A stretch of DNA of 63,646 bases, the filler included, from Reclinomonas americana ATCC 50394 (Eukaryota): NCBI GenBank assembly GCA_048213135.1. It is 9 parts of 6 records of this genome, joined end to end, with 100 filler letters (N's around TTAATTAATTAA, not from the genome) between each part and the next. Parts side by side here need not be neighbours in the genome. Positions count along the whole stretch, not along the records: positions 1 to 29,355 come from PS015077.1; 8 more parts are not named here. One strand, given 5' to 3'. Shown in pieces: positions 2,117-51,792 of this stretch. The notes beneath the pieces are model-generated. The model was not told the origin of the DNA, did not search any database, and worked only from the letters and a program-made list of their open reading frames with translations. The stretch's first letter is position 1; every line of letters starts with the position of its first letter. Both the position numbers and the translations under genes were made by a program.

Positions 2117-4829
2117 ATGCTCACGAGCGCGTGGACAGAGGGCGCTCACCAGCCACCACGTGGTGGCAGTTCGCATGGTGTGTGTGTCTCCCTCCTCGCT
2201 GTCTCCCACACGCACGCACACTACATGCTCACTCGGTTGAGCAGATGACGCGGCAAGCATCGACAGCGAGCATGGCTCTGTGTTTTCATACTCGATCTCG
2301 TGTGACCCGGGCACTCCACAGTTCCTGGCGGCCTCGCGCAAGCTGCAGGAGCTCTTTCTGCGCTTCTTGACGCTGCCGTCCACACATCGACAGATTGATA
2401 CGTTTCTCGACTCGTGCGCGGTGATGGTGCAGAGTTGCGTCACTCTTCTGTGTGCTTGCTGCTTTCGCGTGTGCACTGTGCGCTCACGTGTGGTGGTGAG
2501 CACAGACCGAGCGGCGGCTGGTGCGGCCTCGGCTGGTGGACCTCATCTGAGCGCCGATTGGCATGCACCGCCTGGTTCGACGGCGCCACCGCGATCACCG
2601 GCGCACCACGGCGAGATGGGAGGGAGTGTTGGTGGTGGAGTGGCAGGCGATCGACCGTCGTCGGTGTCGCCGACTGTGGGGCCTTCGAAGACGGCGGGAG
2701 TGGGTGCGCCGGGCGCCACAGCACCGACGCCGGCACCGTCACTGGGCGGTGCGTCTTCTTCTGCACCGACAGCCACGAGCACCGCAGCGGCAGCAGCAAA
2801 GGGGCCGGCGGCAGACACTGTGGGAAGGGTGCGTGCGTGTGTGTGAAAATAGTTGCCTGCATGGTTGCTAACTACAGTAACACGGCAGGGGCCTGCGGGT
2901 GGGAGCAGCAGCAGTGGAGCTGCGGCACCGGCGCCAGCACCTTCTGCACCGCGCGAGGTATGCGATTGATGGACGGCGGGGAGAGAGAGTCTCTGGCTTT
3001 CTGTGTCTCATACGCCAGCACACAGATCATTCCCTCGTTCTACAAGCCCAAGCCTCCACCGGTGCGGACACAAGATGGCGATGTGCCGGTAAGTGGGAGG
3101 CCTCGCCACACACTCTCCCGGTTCTCGAAATGCTGATGGCAGGTGGTGTGCGTGTGTGTGTATCCGTGTAGGCTCGCCTTCGGAGTGCATTTGGTCTCAG
3201 CAGCAACGCACTTCAAGAAGTGGGCCTGCTGCGCGTGACACGAGACGTGCTGAAGCTGCCGTCGTATGTAAATCGAACACTTTTCCGGCGAGTGGACACG
3301 ACAGGCACCGGCACCGTGACCCTCGAGTCGTTTTTGCGGTACTGGCAGCGTGAACTCTCCGGCAACGAGGAAGCGCGTCAGGTGTACAATATTTTCCGTG
3401 CTCCCACTGGCAAGACTATTGTTCGCAGTGGATTTGTCGACTTGGTACAAGGTCTTGTCTTCGCGACACAATGCTACCTGCCTGATGTTGTGGTCTCACC
3501 CCATGTTTCGTCTCTGCAGAGGTTCTCGAGCGACATCCGGGCCTCGAGTTCCTCAAGCAGACGCCCGAATTCCAAGAACGATACGGTGAGTCGAGTCGAG
3601 TGGCGGGGAATGGCGGAGCACGTGACGCTCACCTGTCACGTGCACACAGCCGAGACGGTGGTCGAACGGATATTCTACGTTCTCGATCGCACCAACCTGG
3701 AGGCAATAGACTTCAAGAGCTTCAAGAACTCAAAACTGCTGGCCACCCTGCAAAAGCTGGACACCGAAGACGACATTAATCAGGTGTGCTTGCGCCGCAA
3801 TACAGTTCGTGCAACTTGTGGGGGGGTTAGGCTGACGGTGGAACTGTGTGTGTGCCAGATCATGGATTTCTTCTCGTACGAGCACTTTTATGTGCTCTAC
3901 TGCAAGTTCTGGGAGCTCGATCACGACCACGATTTCATGATCAACAAGGAAGTTGCGACGATGATGATGATGACAGCGCAGGTGTCGACCATACTGGCTC
4001 ACTGTGTATCTGTGAATGTGTGCAGGAGTTCTCCGCATACAGCAACTACGCACTAACGTCGCGTGTGGTGGATCGCATCTTTGATCAGGCGCCGAGACGA
4101 TTCCTGTGCGAGCGCCGTGGCATGATGTCATATCGCGATTTTATCTGTTGCGTTCCCCTGTCGCAAAGGTCGAGCCGCTCCTCTCGTCTCTCTCATGCCG
4201 CGATGAGCAGGGTTCTGCGTTGCCGAGGAAGACAAGACGTCGCCGACGGCGCTCGAGTACTGGTTCCGTATCATGGACATTGACAATGATGGTCTTCTCT
4301 CCGCGTACGAGCTCGAGTACCTGTACTCGGAGCAGCTGACACGCATGGAGAATCTGGCGGCCGAGATTGTCACCTTTGACGACATTTTGTGTCAAATGTT
4401 GCGTGTTTGCGTGTGTGTCTGTCGCGAAACCTTCGCTCCACGCGATGCTCACCGCCGCTCAGGTTGGACATGGTGAAGCCTGTGGACATTACCGCCATTT
4501 ACATTTCCGACCTCAAGCGATGCAAGCAAGCCGACGTGTTTATCAATACCTTCACCAACCTCAACAAGTTCCTGTCCTTCGAGACCCGCGATCCGTTCCT
4601 GGTGTACCAGGAGAACCAGAGCAACACTCTGAGGTTTATATCTTTTCTCTCTCTCCCTCTCTCGATTTCTCGATCGGATTGTGTCCTCATCACCGTCGTG
4701 CGCAGTGACTGGGAGAAGTTTGCACGTGTCGAGTACGACCGTATGGCCATGGAGGACGAATCGGTGGAGGATGGCGATTATCAGCAGTGGAATGCGGAGG
4801 GACTCGTAGACCGCGAGCTGAGCTTTTGA
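2117..4829 (+). CDS. Protein phosphatase 2A regulatory subunit B'' (PPP2R3 family, EF-hand), multi-exon
   Basis: Spliced motifs AETVVERIFY, FFSYEHFYVLYCKFWELDHDHD, DFIWFCVAEEDK, LEYWFRIMDIDNDG, LCQMLDMVKP, SDWEKFARVEYDRM; stop TGA at 4827-4829; start codon inferred. Confidence 0.93.
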
Positions 4830-5013: not shown

Positions 5014-8000
5014 TCACCAGTGCGGCGGAAATCTGAAACGCGCCTGTGCACAACAACGACAATGCAAGCTGTTAGAATGTGGCACGCGAAGCGAGAGTCA
5101 GCGGTGGACGACGCAACAAAAACTGGAAGATGGTCGCTTGGGAAACGCGAGTTGGGAAGGCCACTGCGCAGAAGCAGTCAGGCGAAGACGGAGTCACACT
5201 GACAAAGAAAGACGTGCAAGCACACACCCGTTTTCCTTTGATAGAGTCTGCACAGAGGGCACGTCGAGCACAGCCAGCGGCATGAGTGGCTCGGTGTAGA
5301 ACAACTGCATGCCAGAGGGGTNNNNNNNNNNNNNNNNNNNNNNNNNNNNNNNNNNNNNNNNNNNNNNNNNNNNNNNNNNNNNNNNNNNNNNNNNNNNNNN
5401 NNNNNNNNGGCTCGGTGCCGATCACTGTCTCCATGGCACTGCGGAGCGGCCGAGGATTCACAAATCCACCAGTGGTCGAGTCGAGAACGGACGCCGCGCA
5501 CCCGTCGGCGGCGGCTGTCACCAGCGGGTGATCCGGAGGCACAAATCCTTGAAAGAGAAACGGTTGAACACTCATCAATCATGCAAGTTGTGCGGGAAGA
5601 GACGGCCCCACGCACCGTGACGCAAGTAGCCGTACATGGCGCAGTTTGGTGTCACGTTAAAGTCGCCACCGAGCACCACCGGAATCGGGTGCCCGATTTG
5701 CGCACTGATCTCGCCCTGCAGTCTGTGTATCTCGCGACTCAACACAATCATCTGCCGCATCTGCATGTACGACTGCTTCCAGTTGGCCGAAATGTGCGTC
5801 GAGCCGGCCAGCACGAGGTCACCACGTTCACGATGGCGCAGCACGGCAAACACAGCGACCTGCGTGTGTCCCTTGCCGATGGTGCGCTTCACAGTCGGAT
5901 CGGTGGCCAGTTCGTAGACCGCATCGGCCTGCGCGCAACATGTAAGCGACACACGTCTCACTCTCGTGCATCGACTGACGGCGGAGACGCACCATGCTGA
6001 AGAAGTGTGTGGAGACCAACTCAAACACCGAGTCCTTCCTGCGACAGAATACAACGATCAGTCATCCAGCCATCATCACCACCATCGCCACCACTGTACC
6101 GACGAACCACAGCAGCATGTTGCCGATCACTGGCTCATGCTCCTGGATGACTAGTCCGCTGCGACCGCGCTTCCTGCAATAGCGACCGCGGTAGCCGGCT
6201 GCACTCAGCGTCCTAAACATCCAGTGCGCATGATTGATCGACGGATGCTCTCCCTGGACACACACGAGTTGAGGGAGGCGAAACGGAGTGCATACAGCAC
6301 GATATCGAGACGCACTTGCTCCCACTTGCCGGGCGCTTGGATCTCTGCAATGACAGTCAACCACAATGGCCTTTTGTTGTTGACCTCTCTCTTCGTTCTC
6401 ACCTTGCAGGCAGAGAATGTCGGGCTCGTAGAACAGAATTTCGCGACTGTAGAAGCATGAGGAATGGAGAGCAGTCACATGGGCAAGAATGCAGTAACAC
6501 ACCGAACCGCCCATCGACGATTCTCCCAGTCGAGAGCTGCTCACAGAAAACACAATGAGCGACAGACCACTCGCTGCGCAGCAACGCACGCTCGTCGCGC
6601 ACATGATGGATCGGCGTATGGATACCACGTAGGTGAGCACAGCGACTCGGCCAGAATGTTGTACGTCATCATGGTGAACGATGCACCTGCCACACAAGCA
6701 CACACATGTTGACTGTGTGTGAGAGAGACTGGAGAGGTCCGGAGAACACACGGCTGTGCTGCACCTTGACTTGCTTGCAGTGCACTCGAGTGGCCGATCA
6801 GCGCTCGTGCATTCTCCAGTGGGCCAAACAGCACCACGCGACGCAGCTCGGGCAGCAGGTCGACGCGCCGCAACTGCATGCCGTCCGGTGACACCTCGAC
6901 CGCCGACGACTCGAGAAGAGCCTCGCGGATAATGGTCGTGCGTTCTGTCAGAAGACCACCAGACCTCAGTCACTTGAGCGAACACAGGGAGCTGGCTCGT
7001 GGTCACGCACCAGAGTACTCGGCCAGCCACGCCAGCAGCGGAGGATAGCCGAGCAGCTCGTAGATACCAATGGATCCGTCGCCAGACGAGTACAGGAACG
7101 AGGACAGGTACTGACAAGACACAGGGGTTTGAGCACAGGCCGCCCTCCACACACTCGGCTGAGGAGGCGCTCAATGCCGCGCGACGCAACTACATCCAGC
7201 GCCAGATGCCGATCCGAGAGCCAGAATTCAATGCGGCGACGCACCTTGCTCAGGAGCTCGTCACGCGGCAGACCCTCACTGGGCAGCGGTGACATGGGCG
7301 ATATGGCAGCAGACTCACTCGGCGCGGCATCCTGCGCGCCAGTGAGTTCACAGCTCCCCTCCATGCATCTCATTCCCACCGTCGCCCACACACACCAGAT
7401 GCATCGGCTCCGCGGCACCCCACTCGATGCGAACCACCTCGTCGGGCGTCTTCGGCACCGTCTGCAGTTTGAACGGAGTCTTGCGCTGCACCGCGTCTCG
7501 TTCTCTGGTGAGCTTGAGCTTGTGCAACTTGGGCTGACCGCGGATGGCTTCGACCACTTGCTCCGCTGAAATGTGCTCTTCACGAAACGCGTCAAAACCG
7601 CACATGACTTCGATGGGCACCGAGCCGTCCTCCTCCAACAGCGTCCGCAACAGCTGGCCGTCCTGGCTCAGCAGGAATTCGTCGGAGAACCACACCTGCA
7701 GGTGGCGCAGGATGTACGCATCGCCCTTGTAGCCGCGGATCAGCTGCCGGCCGGACTCGTCACTCACGAGCTCCATCGAAGGGCACAGCGAGGCGGCAGT
7801 GGCCTACCATCCGTCTCCTGTCAGTCACCGCGATGCATGGAATGAGGTGGCGACAACGCAACAATACGAGAAAGCCACAGCTCGCGAGGCAAGTGGCGCA
7901 GCGCGTGCACCACTCGGCGCATCTTGGCGAACTCTTCAATCTGTGGTTGGGGAAGAACGTCAGTCGGCGTCAACGACGCGGAGTGTGGCTCCTACTTACC

Positions 8001-9468
8001 GGCGCACTGCCCTGGTGGTGATCACAGACAGCCATCAACGTGGTGTGCTGCGTGCGTCATGCAGCAACAGGTCAGCAGGCAGAAACAACACAGTGACGAG
8101 GAAAGCACAGTCACCTTGAGCAAGGTGGCCGGGTGGAACATGTGAACAATGAGACGCGACAGCTGCTCATGCAACGAGATCGTGTACAGCGAACGTGAGC
8201 TTCCGTCGAGCTGCAGGAAGCCGGCGTCGCGGAGTCGCTGTCGCTCGATGAGCCACATGAGGTAGTGCTCGGCGGCATCGACAGCACCACTGCCGCTGCC
8301 GCTACCGCCGCTGCTGCTGCCGCCACTGGAGGACGAGCCGGCACTGTTGGTGCGCTTGAGCTTGGCCGCCAGTGGATCGCCCGCAGCCGGTGTGGTGGAG
8401 GCGGCCTTGATGCAGGCCTGCTGAATGAGTGGACACTCGGCTGCAAGACGCACGTGAGTGCCACACACAGAGTCACTCTCATTTCCCGCACACACGCACC
8501 AAACACGAGACGAATCGGCACGTAGCCGAGCGGATGCTCCAGTCGCGCGCTCTCGAGCACTGGATAGGTGGCAGGCGGGTGCAGCACACGACTGAGCCAG
8601 CTGGCCACCATCAGCGACGCTGCCTCGTCGTCCTGACGCTGCAGATCCACGTCGTCACGCGGAGGCTCCTCGTCGACCGGCACCATGGCGGTCTCCGGTC
8701 GCGGAAGCAACAAAAAGAGCTCCTCCAGTCGCATCAAAATCTCCTCTGCGCTCGGCCCGCAAGCAAGCACGCAGCGATGAGCATCACACCACAGAAAGAG
8801 AGAGGGGCACAAATTACGAACGAGAAACAGCGCGTCGGCGCACTCGATCCGGCCCATCGCCACATCGCTTGAACTCGACCGTCGGCGACGTGGAGAACAG
8901 GCGCCGCAAGTACCGATACAGTCCACGCACCGCGCGACTCTCCTCGTTCACAAACTATCCTCGCGCCTCATCCATGAGTGGATCCATGTGCATGATCAGA
9001 CTGCTTGCATGCATGCATGACACACACCTCGGAGAGTCCACCGAGTTCAGTAAAGGCCATGATCAGATCGATCCACGGTCCGGGGACGTTGTGCCGTCGC
9101 GTCGCCGACTCGGGGCGCGTGAGATCCGAGTCTTGCACGTAGATCTCAATCATGGAGGCCACCGTTCGCGCCCATTCTTCATCGATCAAAACATCGCCCT
9201 CCTCGCCTTCCTCGCCGTCGTCGCCCTCATCGGCCTCGTCGTCTTCCGACTCGTCGTTTGGGTCGTGCTGCTGCAAACAGAGAGAGACAATGCAATCAGG
9301 AGAATAACAATAAATGTGCATTGCAAAGAAGCTGAGCGCAACTGCGACGGGCAGATGCGTCAGCGGTTCAAGCGGAGGTCGCAGGAAGAGCGGCGGCGGA
9401 CGCAGAGAACTACGACTGGGTGGGTCGGAAGGCGCAGCGGCAGCGGCGGCACTCTGTTCGTCGGCCAT
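5014..9468 (-). CDS. Fusion of about five La-motif-like domains and a C-terminal CCR4/Angel/nocturnin-type EEP phosphoesterase
   Basis: Exons join in frame through GT-AG introns from ATG 9468; one N gap at 5322-5408. EEP motifs TYNILAE, PDILCLQE, STH, VLGGDFN, FPSDHLP. La-like segments such as RRRIEFWLSDRHLALDVYLSSFL...ALLESSAVEVSPDGMQLRR and LRHLQVWFSDEFL...GSVPIEVMCGF. Confidence 0.75.
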
Positions 9469-9866: not shown

Positions 9867-11187
9867 ATGATGAGTGCCGCCGAAACCGCTGCCTCCTCCA
9901 AGTCACCCACACGCTCATCGTCCGACGATTCAGAGGTGCGCTGCGGTCTTCCGCATCTCCACATCTCTCTCTCTCTCTTACACACACCTGCACACAGTGG
10001 ATTCACTTCAACGTGGGTGGCGAGTACTTTTGCACCACGCGATCCACTCTGCTTGTGGACGACAGCTCCGCACTCTTCCGCAATCTGGCCGAGCTCGACA
10101 GCGGCGCCTCGGACAGCTGCTCCATCCCGTTTTCGCGCGATGACAAGGGACGCATTCTGTTTGATCGCGGTGCGTGCGTGTACGCTTGCGTGTACATCGC
10201 CACACGGGCACGCTGATGATCGTCGTGCACAGATCCACGCTACTTTGATGTGATCCTGTCGTTTTTGCGCACGGGCGAGGTGCGACTCGACAAGGGCACC
10301 TCCACTCGTGGCCTCCTCCGTGAGGCGCAGTATTTCGGGGTCGAAACAGTGCGTGCTGGTCTTTTGTTTCTGGCGCTCTTGCTTCTGGGGTTGCTCACCA
10401 CGGCTCGGTGTTTTCGCCAGTTGGAGCAAGCGGTGCAGCGCATGCTCGATGCCGACGAGGCTGCCGAGGCGCGACAGGCCACGCTGCCGAATTCGCAGCG
10501 GGAGCCGGAGGTCACTCGCGAGGATGTGATTCGAGTTGCGCTGCGCCTGTTGTGCGGTCGCTGTGTGGCTGTGTGGCTGACTCTCCTGCAGAGCATCATG
10601 AGCACCACGTCGGGCACGCCGCTGCGCTTCCAGGGCATCTGCTTCAACACGCTAGTGCTCAACGATCTGGATCTGTCGGGCATCAACTTTCACCGCGCCA
10701 AGATGCACTCGACGCAGCTGGTGGCGGCCTCGCTGCGCGGCGCCAACATGTCGCACAGCTTGCTCACCAGGTGAGTGTTCACCCAGTCTTCATTTCTCCT
10801 TCTCGTCTCATTCCGTTTGAACAGTGCCAAGCTCACGGGTGCCGATCTGACGGGAGCGTCGCTGTGCCGTGCCGACGCTTGTGCCGCCGACTTTACGGGC
10901 GCCATTATGAAGAATGCCGACTTGTCGTACTGCACGCTGACCAATGCCATTCTGCGCAACGTGGACCTCTCCAACGCCAATCTCTCCTACGCCATCATCC
11001 GCGACGTGGACTTGCGCGATTCGGATCTGCGGGTGCGTGTGCCCCAACCTGCTCACTCACTCATACGCTGTGTACTCACGACGCTCTTTCGCTGTATCAG
11101 GGTGCCAACCTGAAGGGCGCAATTTTCCAGGGTGTGGATCGGCAGGGTGCCACACTGGCCATGGGTGGTGTGATTGGTCTGCGGTGA
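9867..11187 (+). CDS. BTB/POZ (T1-type) plus pentapeptide-repeat protein, KCTD9/FIP2-like
   Basis: WIHFNVGGEYFCTTRSTL...FDRDPRYFDVILSFLRTG...LLREAQYFG followed by A(D/N)Lxx repeats (LTGADLTGASLCRAD, LRNVDLSNANLSYA). Confidence 0.9.
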
Positions 11188-11611
11188 CACTCGACACTGC
11201 TGTGTCGTGGTGATGGTGTTGTTGTAAATGAAGAATGCTTGTGTACCAAAAAGAATGAGGGCTTCACANNNNNNNNNNNNNNNNNNNNNNNNNNNNNNNN
11301 NNNNNNNNNNNNNNNNNNNNNNNNNNNNNNNNNNNNNNNNNNNNNNNNNNNNNNNNNNNNNNNNNNNNNNNNNNNNNNNNNNNNNNNNNNNNNNNNNNNN
11401 NNNNNNNNNNNNNNNNNNNNNNNNNNNNNNNNNNNNNNNNNNNNNNNNNNNNNNNNNNNNNNNNNNNNNNNNNNNNNNNNNNNNNNNNNNNNNNNNNNNN
11501 NNNNNNNNNNNNNNNNNNNNNNNNNNNNNNNNNNNNNNNNNNNNNNNNNNNNNNNNNNNNNNNNNNNNNNNNNNNNNNNNNNNNNNNNNNNNNNNNNNNN
11601 NNNNNNNNNNN

Positions 11612-28800: not shown

Positions 28801-29399
28801 TCGACGGAAACCAATCGAGGATAGAGGAGTGCAAGCAAGAACTCACCGTTCGCGCGCTGCCTTGGCGGTGCGAAGTAGGTCGCCGAGTGATGGACCGCTC
28901 CCACTGGTTCCGCCCGAGTGTTTTTTCCGCAGCATGAGTGTTGGTGTTGACAGTGTGCTCTCTCGCTCGCGAAATGAAACAATACAAATGATAGTTTTGG
29001 TTGGTCGGTGCGGATTGGCTGCGGGCGAGCGAAGGTGTTCTGAGCGCGCTGCGCAAAAGGAAGAGGATGGCGATGGTGACTTGCAGCGGTCGGAGCACGA
29101 GAGAACTGTCTGCGCCCGATCATGGTTGACAAAGAACCACAGCCAGTTTTGGATCGATGTCTTTGGTTTGCAGCTGCGCTAGTGCTGTTGCAGGTGACGC
29201 ACTCCCCGCGAGTCGCTGTACATGTCGGGCAGACGTCTGGCAGTGGGGGTGAAGTACGCTGAGGAGTAAATACGAGGGCAGCTCTCTCTCTCTCTCTTTC
29301 ACTCTCATTCTGTCTCCGTCTCTCTCTCTATGTCTCTCCATCTCTCTCTCTCTCTNNNNNNNNNNNNNNNNNNNNNNNNNNNNNNNNNNNNNNNNNNNN

Positions 29400-29411
29400 T
29401 TAATTAATTAA
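29400..29411. other. Artificial scaffold linker TTAATTAATTAA (also at 47444, 51737, 54615, 56463, 58134, 60435, 62393)
   Basis: Identical 12-mer with stops in all six frames, always embedded in N runs. Confidence 0.97.
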
Positions 29412-29455
29412 NNNNNNNNNNNNNNNNNNNNNNNNNNNNNNNNNNNNNNNNNNNN

Positions 29456-47399: not shown

Positions 47400-47499
47400 N
47401 NNNNNNNNNNNNNNNNNNNNNNNNNNNNNNNNNNNNNNNNNNNTTAATTAATTAANNNNNNNNNNNNNNNNNNNNNNNNNNNNNNNNNNNNNNNNNNNN

Positions 47500-51692: not shown

Positions 51693-51792
51693 NNNNNNNN
51701 NNNNNNNNNNNNNNNNNNNNNNNNNNNNNNNNNNNNTTAATTAATTAANNNNNNNNNNNNNNNNNNNNNNNNNNNNNNNNNNNNNNNNNNNN

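Follow-up and report, generated by a model that had tools for sequence, protein, structure and literature searches.

A predicted array of tandem La motifs joined to a CCR4-family phosphoesterase in Reclinomonas americana and its relatives in other microbial eukaryotes

The La motif is known as a solitary module guarding RNA 3' ends against exonucleases, and the CCR4 family of EEP phosphoesterases keeps yielding unexpected substrates, including poly(A), tRNA CCA, cyclic phosphate and NADP. A gene located at positions 5014..9468 in a stretch of DNA from Reclinomonas americana ATCC 50394 brings the two together: a domain known to shield 3' ends is fused to a member of an enzyme family that degrades such ends. 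The window, which refers to the whole stretch of DNA analysed (63,646 nucleotides, filler included), is composed of nine parts of six records of the assembly GCA_048213135.1, and the gene belongs to the part derived from PS015077.1. An initial annotation, made from the sequence alone, had described about five tandem La-motif-like domains fused to a CCR4/Angel-type EEP phosphoesterase and had proposed a self-targeting RNA 3'-end processing enzyme.

By homology, the tandem La and EEP design is a conserved family recurring in other microbial eukaryotes and not a one-off. A HMMER search with the largest nuclease exon against 1.84 billion representatives retrieved 35 matches, among which 30 were scanned against Pfam, and seven of the latter displayed both La and Exo_endo_phos above the curated cut-offs. 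The proposed union of a La array and a CCR4-family EEP domain in one protein is thus borne out by relatives encoding the same design in single open frames. The homologue P0037 (827 amino acids, aa, in the cluster of P0002) is one open reading frame (ORF) filling a contig of 2,666 nucleotides (nt), and the ORFs of P0002 and P0006 fill contigs of 2,416 and 2,185 nt; these contig-filling ORFs are likely spliced transcripts, because P0032 seems to be the P0002 gene read with an intron still in place. Residues 221-1014 of the R. americana protein aligned by BLASTP with residues 106-824 of P0037 in a single, collinear segment (27.9% identity, E 3e-84). The Pfam La family matched P0037 with 131 bits over three stretches, and matched three stretches of P0002 and of P0024 and two of P0006. 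The La units of P0037 are closer to LARP7 (E 6e-8) and La (E 1e-7) than to LARP1 (E 8e-4). Ten matches combine the nuclease signature described below with at least 150 residues before the nuclease: six of them have at least two La units, as counted with a La profile trained on these same proteins, P0009 has one and P0029 two weak ones.

The La-bearing clusters originate from Logan, ENA and JGI records, with no NCBI or UniRef member in those looked up, and the automatic JGI names, which label members Ccr4 or CNOT6, are probably wrong. Word-based protein searches with single exons found no relatives, and the same type of search with the alignment A1, which scored 8,000 candidates, retrieved three proteins and failed to recover seven of its own eight input rows, gives no measure of range. 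The ESM Atlas queried with P0006 returned EEP-only clusters scoring below 0.9, small clusters being outside this search. A scan of metagenomic DNA, viral contigs left out, identified at least 29 loci that were used as outgroups, and among the matches listed none had a La unit of 8 bits or more. One further protein, P0025 (461 aa, JGI), bears an N-terminally cut signature nuclease followed by WW and Nudix domains and represents a second fusion of this enzyme.

In R. americana, the peptides quoted in the initial annotation are all found on the minus strand at the place given, and what look like separate ORFs splice, as proposed, into one frame. Splicing is here a prediction from sequence, based on splice signals, frame and homologue alignment. 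The frame starts with the ATG at 9468 and stops with the TGA ending at 5014 on the minus strand (Table 1); 19 exons upstream of an assembly gap encode 954 aa and three exons downstream encode 50 aa, with 0 stops. The 20 introns whose both ends are visible all have GT..AG ends and a size of 56-80 nt, in a locus of about 55-60% G+C that is eukaryotic in character with short introns. The junction flagged for verification near 7800-7863 corresponds to an intron (7862-7804, GT..TAG, phase 0) across which the alignment to P0037 is free of gaps. Twelve of introns 4-18 show an ungapped alignment to P0037 in the 8 residues spanning the junction; alignment gaps lie at or next to introns 8, 11 and 15, and introns 1-3, outside the P0037 alignment, are supported by splice signals and frame only. 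Without any splicing, one frame (ORF 6541-6969) already holds both the end of unit 5 and the first motif of the EEP domain. A 44-nt form of intron 9 was dropped for an 80-nt form, picked by eye for the La spacing and later agreeing with the ungapped alignment. The frames obtained by reading through the introns gave no La or EEP match in Pfam, just a chance match on intron sequence. Two DNA runs cover just 5969-6427 of the locus and have no bearing on expression. Six of the 20 visible donors start with GTT (GTTGCG four times and GTTCGT twice), at 9342, 8821, 7862, 7190, 6107 and 5117 on the minus strand, an unusual 5' splice-site preference for R. americana.

Four La units (2-5) are supported in this gene by profile, shuffles and the fold of P0037; unit 1, the remaining one of the five tandem units first proposed, is doubtful. 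A profile built on 12 La units, all from homologues, with significance evaluated by 1,000 shuffles, gave 28.5 bits for unit 3, 22.7 for unit 4 and 47.0 for unit 5 (0/1,000 shuffles each), and 0.8 bits for unit 2 (24/1,000) and 3.1 bits for unit 1 (1/1,000). Units 3-5 (22.7-47 bits) are therefore recognised by sequence as PF05383 La motifs, and unit 3 is a strong call, unlike in the former view that units 1-3 are weaker than units 4-5. Unit 2 matches the P0037 unit at the equal position (0/2,000 shuffles), whereas the match of unit 1 to the first unit of P0037 is not above chance (200/2,000). The exon of unit 4 is the sole La match among 14 exon pieces compared with Pfam (19.5 bits, E 9e-4, under the curated cut-off of 37.1), and this unit also matches La clusters in the ESM Atlas (score 0.93) as well as the human La protein (E 0.017); the end of unit 5 matches the Dictyostelium La motif 2m5w (E 0.079). 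When the five units were compared with one another, most pairs were no more alike than expected by chance (p 0.004 for units 4 and 5), and this comparison was not used. No RRM follows the La units in the Pfam scans of P0037 and the other La-bearing matches and, in this gene, the units abut one another or the nuclease with a longest linker of 46 residues, which sets the array apart from the RRM-associated La motifs of La and LARP4/6/7. The 3'-end pocket was scored from what we take to be its six residues, with a numbering derived from the alignment to human La: Gln20, Tyr23, Tyr24, Asp33, Phe35 and Phe55, aromatic swaps being allowed; units 1 and 2 were left out of the count because of their poor alignment. 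By this count the gene has partly eroded La pockets, unit 5 retaining the Asp33 position among its five residues of six. All six residues are present in four of the 26 units examined, two of them in P0037 and the others in P0006 and P0030.

Models of P0037 attribute a La fold to units 2-5. In the full-length model, these units have a common helix-strand order, with a predicted local distance difference test score (pLDDT) of about 60-93 per block. The La winged-helix fold of unit 2, suggested from its sequence pattern, was checked on the orthologous unit (residues 90-186 of P0037), for which the top 8 of 48,161 chains are all La/LARP motifs with Z 7.8-9.6; the match to 1zh5 has a Z of 9.5 and a root-mean-square deviation (rmsd) of 2.8 over 85 aligned residues. 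This unit was folded with its N-terminal neighbour, the model has a mean pLDDT of 61, and Foldseek gave E 0.07 or worse with La still first. Fold searches with the full-length P0037 listed the nuclease only, and no La. No La fold was recovered from unit 1 of P0037, whose model is of low confidence (pLDDT mostly below 50-60), and this is not evidence against the fold. Residues 90-186 and 298-350 of P0037 also show a likeness to the tRNA 2'-phosphotransferase Tpt1: its RNA lobes rank next to La among the fold matches (Z 6.5-7.6; best match Z 7.6, rmsd 2.5, 75 aligned), and Pfam PTS_2-RNA gives a weak match (E 0.01).

The EEP domain and its catalytic motifs follow the array as described initially: PDB matches and the conservation in this gene of the CNOT6L positions Asn195, Glu240, His360, Asp410, Asn412 and His529, all six readable (numbering counted on the alignment), agree on this point. 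By its fold and Mg-site residues the domain is CCR4-like, the Asp489 position being hidden in the N gap together with that of Phe484; in the alignment A2 (22 rows of homologues) both are kept in at least 90%. The P0037 model superimposes on CNOT6L (3ngo) with Z 41.2 and rmsd 2.5 over 328 aligned residues, and on ANGEL2, PDE12 and nocturnin with Z 36-38. The family profile scored 237.7 bits with yeast Ccr4, 202 with CNOT6, 198 with CNOT6L, 190 with PDE12, 180 with nocturnin and 175 with ANGEL2, and by sequence the nuclease is thus closest to Ccr4/CNOT6. Its signature lies in the substrate loop, where Ala852, Trp854 and Gln860 replace Trp363, Pro365 and Lys371 of CNOT6L; in 26 of the 35 nuclease-exon matches, Trp363 is similarly replaced by Ala, Cys or Ser, Pro365 by Trp, Phe or Tyr, and Lys371 by Gln. 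No leucine-rich repeat (LRR) was found by Pfam in the 14 exon pieces, in P0037 or in other members, the controls L004 and L007 displaying it in the same scan.

A maximum-likelihood tree of 29 rows, unrooted, comprised 18 signature rows, five CCR4-type, two PDE12-like, two Angel-like and two nocturnin-named rows. The 18 signature rows fall on one side of a branch supported at 98/91 and found in 97% of bootstrap trees, for a group set by the signature, itself among the aligned columns. The outgroup labels derive from Pfam (LRR in L004 and L007), source name or loop motif, with no human reference among the rows. L005, L017, P0043 and P0029 (long branches), P0011, P0023 and near-duplicates were left out, and the row of L007 was cut too long. 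An earlier quick tree gave an SH-aLRT of 96, and another tree had no CCR4 or PDE12 outgroup. The family is separate from P0021 and P0027, which we presume to be Angel-like from a loop motif. It is also separate from L013 and L022, labelled PDE12-like by the likeness of their loop to that of LCCR4, and P0037 has no PF21171 match. The lack of LRR, the replaced Trp363/Pro365/Lys371 loop and a branch apart from the five CCR4-type rows distinguish it from CCR4/CNOT6. The nocturnin-named rows, two oomycete proteins so called by their source, are placed outside the family. The label "CCR4/Angel-type" is refined accordingly: according to the sequence tree, the nuclease is a separate branch that belongs neither to the CCR4, nor to the Angel, nor to the PDE12 subfamily.

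What such an enzyme would do can be approached from this arrangement. We favour, as a tentative reading that falls slightly short of probable, an enzyme trimming short 3'-OH tails of stable non-coding RNAs outside CCR4-NOT. The La winged-helix array would occupy the place of the CAF1-binding LRR of CCR4, joined directly to the Mg-dependent CCR4-type phosphoesterase, and could replace it as a targeting device, the enzyme finding its substrate by itself. The one or two units whose pocket is intact would capture RNA ends bearing a free 3'-OH, and the eroded ones would act as spacers or enlarge the surface in contact with RNA. What the nuclease trims would most likely be the oligo(U)/oligo(A) ends of transcripts made by RNA polymerase III (pre-tRNA trailers, U6, 5S). 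The putative self-targeting RNA 3'-end enzyme proposed initially fits everything found. The closest solved relatives are exonucleases, which we count for trimming, the replacement of Pro365, which together with Phe484 stacks the adenine in CNOT6L (PMC4032980), by Trp, Phe or Tyr suggests base stacking without the poly(A) geometry, and LCCR4 of Trypanosoma brucei may be counted, by analogy, as a precedent for 3'-end trimming without LRR.

Several points weigh against trimming. The La pocket and the active site cannot hold the same 3' end at once, and the model needs a hand-off or an array that binds and caps the trimmed product. The change of Trp363 to Ala, Cys or Ser is as in the phosphatase nocturnin and unlike deadenylases, and favours a phosphatase. 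The bit-score ranking is shallow, sequence is no predictor of substrate in the CCR4 family, and both the trimming activity and its substrate are predicted only. Units 3-5 have 0, 3 and 5 of the six pocket residues, with no full pocket in this gene, and unit 5 has an Arg at the position of Gln20, the Gln whose loss lowers RNA binding by LARP1 20-fold (PMC9458460). Full pockets are also missing from P0009, P0014, P0023 and P0024. Finally, no La was detected in P0005 and P0016, which have the signature and long N-termini, or in the short N-terminus of P0019, from which it appears that the nuclease does not need the array.

The best surviving alternative, possible though rather unlikely, is an end-healing phosphatase: the EEP domain would remove a 2',3'-cyclic, 2'- or 3'-phosphate, and the La array would then protect the new 3'-OH or hold the RNA body. 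The La motif needing a free 3'-OH, it would bind the product and no hand-off problem would arise. In 26 of the 35 matches Trp363 gives way to a small residue, which presumably occupies the same column as Ala289 of nocturnin, located where deadenylases have Trp, a change said in bioRxiv 10.1101/534560 to separate them; however, the CCR4-grouping L001-L003 also have Ala at 363, so the change is not diagnostic. The matches to the Tpt1 RNA lobes (Z 7.6, rmsd 2.5, 75 aligned) are in line with end-healing, but this likeness is that of a shared winged-helix fold only. Moreover, the Angel-like rows lie apart from the family in the tree, and ANGEL2, a cyclic phosphatase via a loop change according to PMC13247085, scores lowest of the six solved relatives.

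We regard as improbable that the protein is a CAF1-independent mRNA deadenylase with La units binding poly(A) 3' ends like the La motif of LARP1. According to PMC9458460, the LARP1 La motif without RRM binds RNA 3' ends including poly(A), a free 3'-OH being needed. Ccr4 and CNOT6 also rank first in both sequence and fold, the family conserves the positions of Phe484 and Asn412, and the automatic JGI names are Ccr4/CNOT6. Nevertheless, Trp363, Pro365 and Lys371 are all replaced, and the family is split from the five CCR4-type rows at 98/91. The LRR, which ties Ccr4 to CAF1 and is described as required for deadenylase activity in PMC2425496, is missing, and the La units of P0037 are nearer LARP7 and La (E 6e-8 and 1e-7) than LARP1 (8e-4).

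More improbable again, the array in this copy could no longer bind RNA ends and be a protein-binding or structural spacer, the substrate being a small metabolite or delivered by a partner. Such a role would account for pockets eroded throughout this gene, the large insertions in unit 2 and the members without detectable La, and bioRxiv 10.1101/534560 indicates that the same fold can turn to NADP(H) in nocturnin, where two arginines (Arg290 and Arg367) clamp the adenine. Yet full pockets persist in three distantly placed homologues, unit 5 keeps five of the six residues including the Asp33 position, and the adenine-clamping Arg of nocturnin, considering the first of the two only, has no constant counterpart in the loop. 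That two or more separate genes, or a pseudogene, are joined by the splice model only is very improbable: the splicing of the locus rests on sequence, introns 1-3 and 8 are without homology support and 6/20 donors begin with GTT, but unit 5 and the nuclease are in one unspliced frame, the homologues are collinear single ORFs, 954 + 50 codons hold no stop with all introns of 56-80 nt, and GTTGCG donors also occur in the eye-placed introns of a neighbouring gene.

Among the sequences compared, the named members of the nuclease branch come from just the choanoflagellate Codosiga hollandica (P0019) and Rhodelphis limneticus (P0034), no La being detected in either and the second having almost no sequence before the nuclease; they point to a wide spread, unless transfer occurred. 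With real doubts, we advance the possibility of an ancient fifth branch of the CCR4 family combined with a sixth class of La motifs across several eukaryotic supergroups, missed as model organisms lack it, that would capture, process and cap the 3' ends of non-coding RNAs (by trimming of polymerase III oligo(U) tails or removal of cyclic or 2'-phosphates) with the array as a ruler. A La array joined to a CCR4-type enzyme adds a class to both families and offers a direct test of La steering versus blocking 3'-end processing, for which P0037 and P0006, compact single-ORF homologues with intact pockets, are suited to assay.

Table 1. Predicted features of the La-EEP gene of R. americana, in positions of the window
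Feature	Position	Strand	Remarks
Whole gene	5014..9468	-	22 predicted exons, ~1,020 aa; basis: stop-free spliced frame, P0037 collinearity and junction check
Exons 1-7	9468-9343, 9270-9028, 8954-8822, 8745-8500, 8440-8115, 8047-8000, 7940-7863	-	
Exons 8-14	7803-7396, 7331-7191, 7110-7011, 6944-6765, 6686-6603, 6536-6503, 6446-6403	-	
Exons 15-19	6344-6316, 6253-6108, 6038-5993, 5928-5616, 5547-gap	-	
Exons 20-22 (after N gap)	5304-5228, 5163-5118, 5043-5014	-	
Acidic (Asp/Glu-rich) tract before unit 1	9178..9258	-	residues 47-73; read in translation; absent from P0037
Unit 1, doubtful degenerate La-like	8829..9177	-	residues 74-165, interrupted by intron 2
Unit 2, degenerate La motif	8181..8828	-	residues 166-336; three insertions including Ser/Gly tract 8348-8286
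Unit 3, La motif	7732..8180	-	residues 337-424; pocket residues 0/6
Unit 4, La motif, single exon	7471..7731	-	residues 425-511; pocket residues 3/6
Unit 5, best-kept La motif	6859..7268	-	residues 558-645; pocket residues 5/6 (Gln20 position is Arg); abuts nuclease
CCR4-family EEP domain	5014..6858	-	PDB matches PDE12, Ccr4, ANGEL2
Readable catalytic-site residues	Asn686 6660-6658; Glu731 codon split by intron 14; His849 5796-5794; Asp893 5664-5662; Asn895 5658-5656; last-motif His 5132-5130	-	
Assembly gap, 87 N	5322..5408	.	hides one intron donor and ~14 codons, among them the Phe484/Asp489-equivalent motif

The La-EEP gene is flanked by two other genes, both on the plus strand. An intron-rich convergent EF-hand gene (about 2400-4829; Pfam EF-hand_13 and others), which we take to resemble a PP2A B'' regulatory subunit, ends 184 bases from the La-EEP stop, and its eye-placed introns near 4147, 4398 and 4634 also start with GTT, GTTGCG included. 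On the other side, a BTB and pentapeptide-repeat gene (about 9868-11200), presumably KCTD9-like, is divergent, in head to head orientation with about 400 bases between. Elsewhere in the window, paired runs of 44 N with 12 bases between them, at 29356-29455, 47400-47499, 51693-51792 and six further places, are probably an assembly or masking artefact.

Both domains are known, and their combination as well as the nuclease branch appear undescribed. Literature listings showed no description of tandem La motifs or La-EEP fusions, subscription papers and a 2009 survey of the La superfamily being outside reach. In the accessible part of a La-motif survey of 345 proteins from 135 species, five families, a La/DUF3223 association and solo motifs are reported, none of them tandem or nuclease-fused (PMC7928011). 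Among the described enzymes, CCR4, CNOT6 and CNOT6L (4b8c, 7ax1 and 3ngo) share with this gene the EEP fold and the six active-site positions; they differ from it by an LRR in place of the La array, by Trp363, Pro365 and Lys371 in place of Ala, Trp and Gln, and by their position across the 98/91 branch. ANGEL2, PDE12 and nocturnin have the same fold and metal site, and the small residue at position 363 would resemble that of nocturnin, but their substrate loop is different and the Angel-like, PDE12-like and nocturnin-named rows are on their own branches. The closest functional precedent is LCCR4, an LRR-less CCR4-family enzyme acting alone on stable-RNA 3' ends, described in PMC7897491 as outside CAF1-NOT and trimming tRNA 3' ends; by contrast with the present family, its printed sequence carries Arg in place of Lys371 within a loop like that of PDE12, and inspection by eye shows no La unit, on which grounds it was rejected as a known member; the paper makes no mention of a La motif. 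La itself keeps exonucleases off the UUU ends of transcripts made by polymerase III (PMC9458460). With La and LARP1/4/6/7, the proteins studied here share the La-motif fold and, in some homologue units, all six pocket residues; unlike them, they line up four to five motifs in tandem, without RRM, and carry an enzyme fused to the array.

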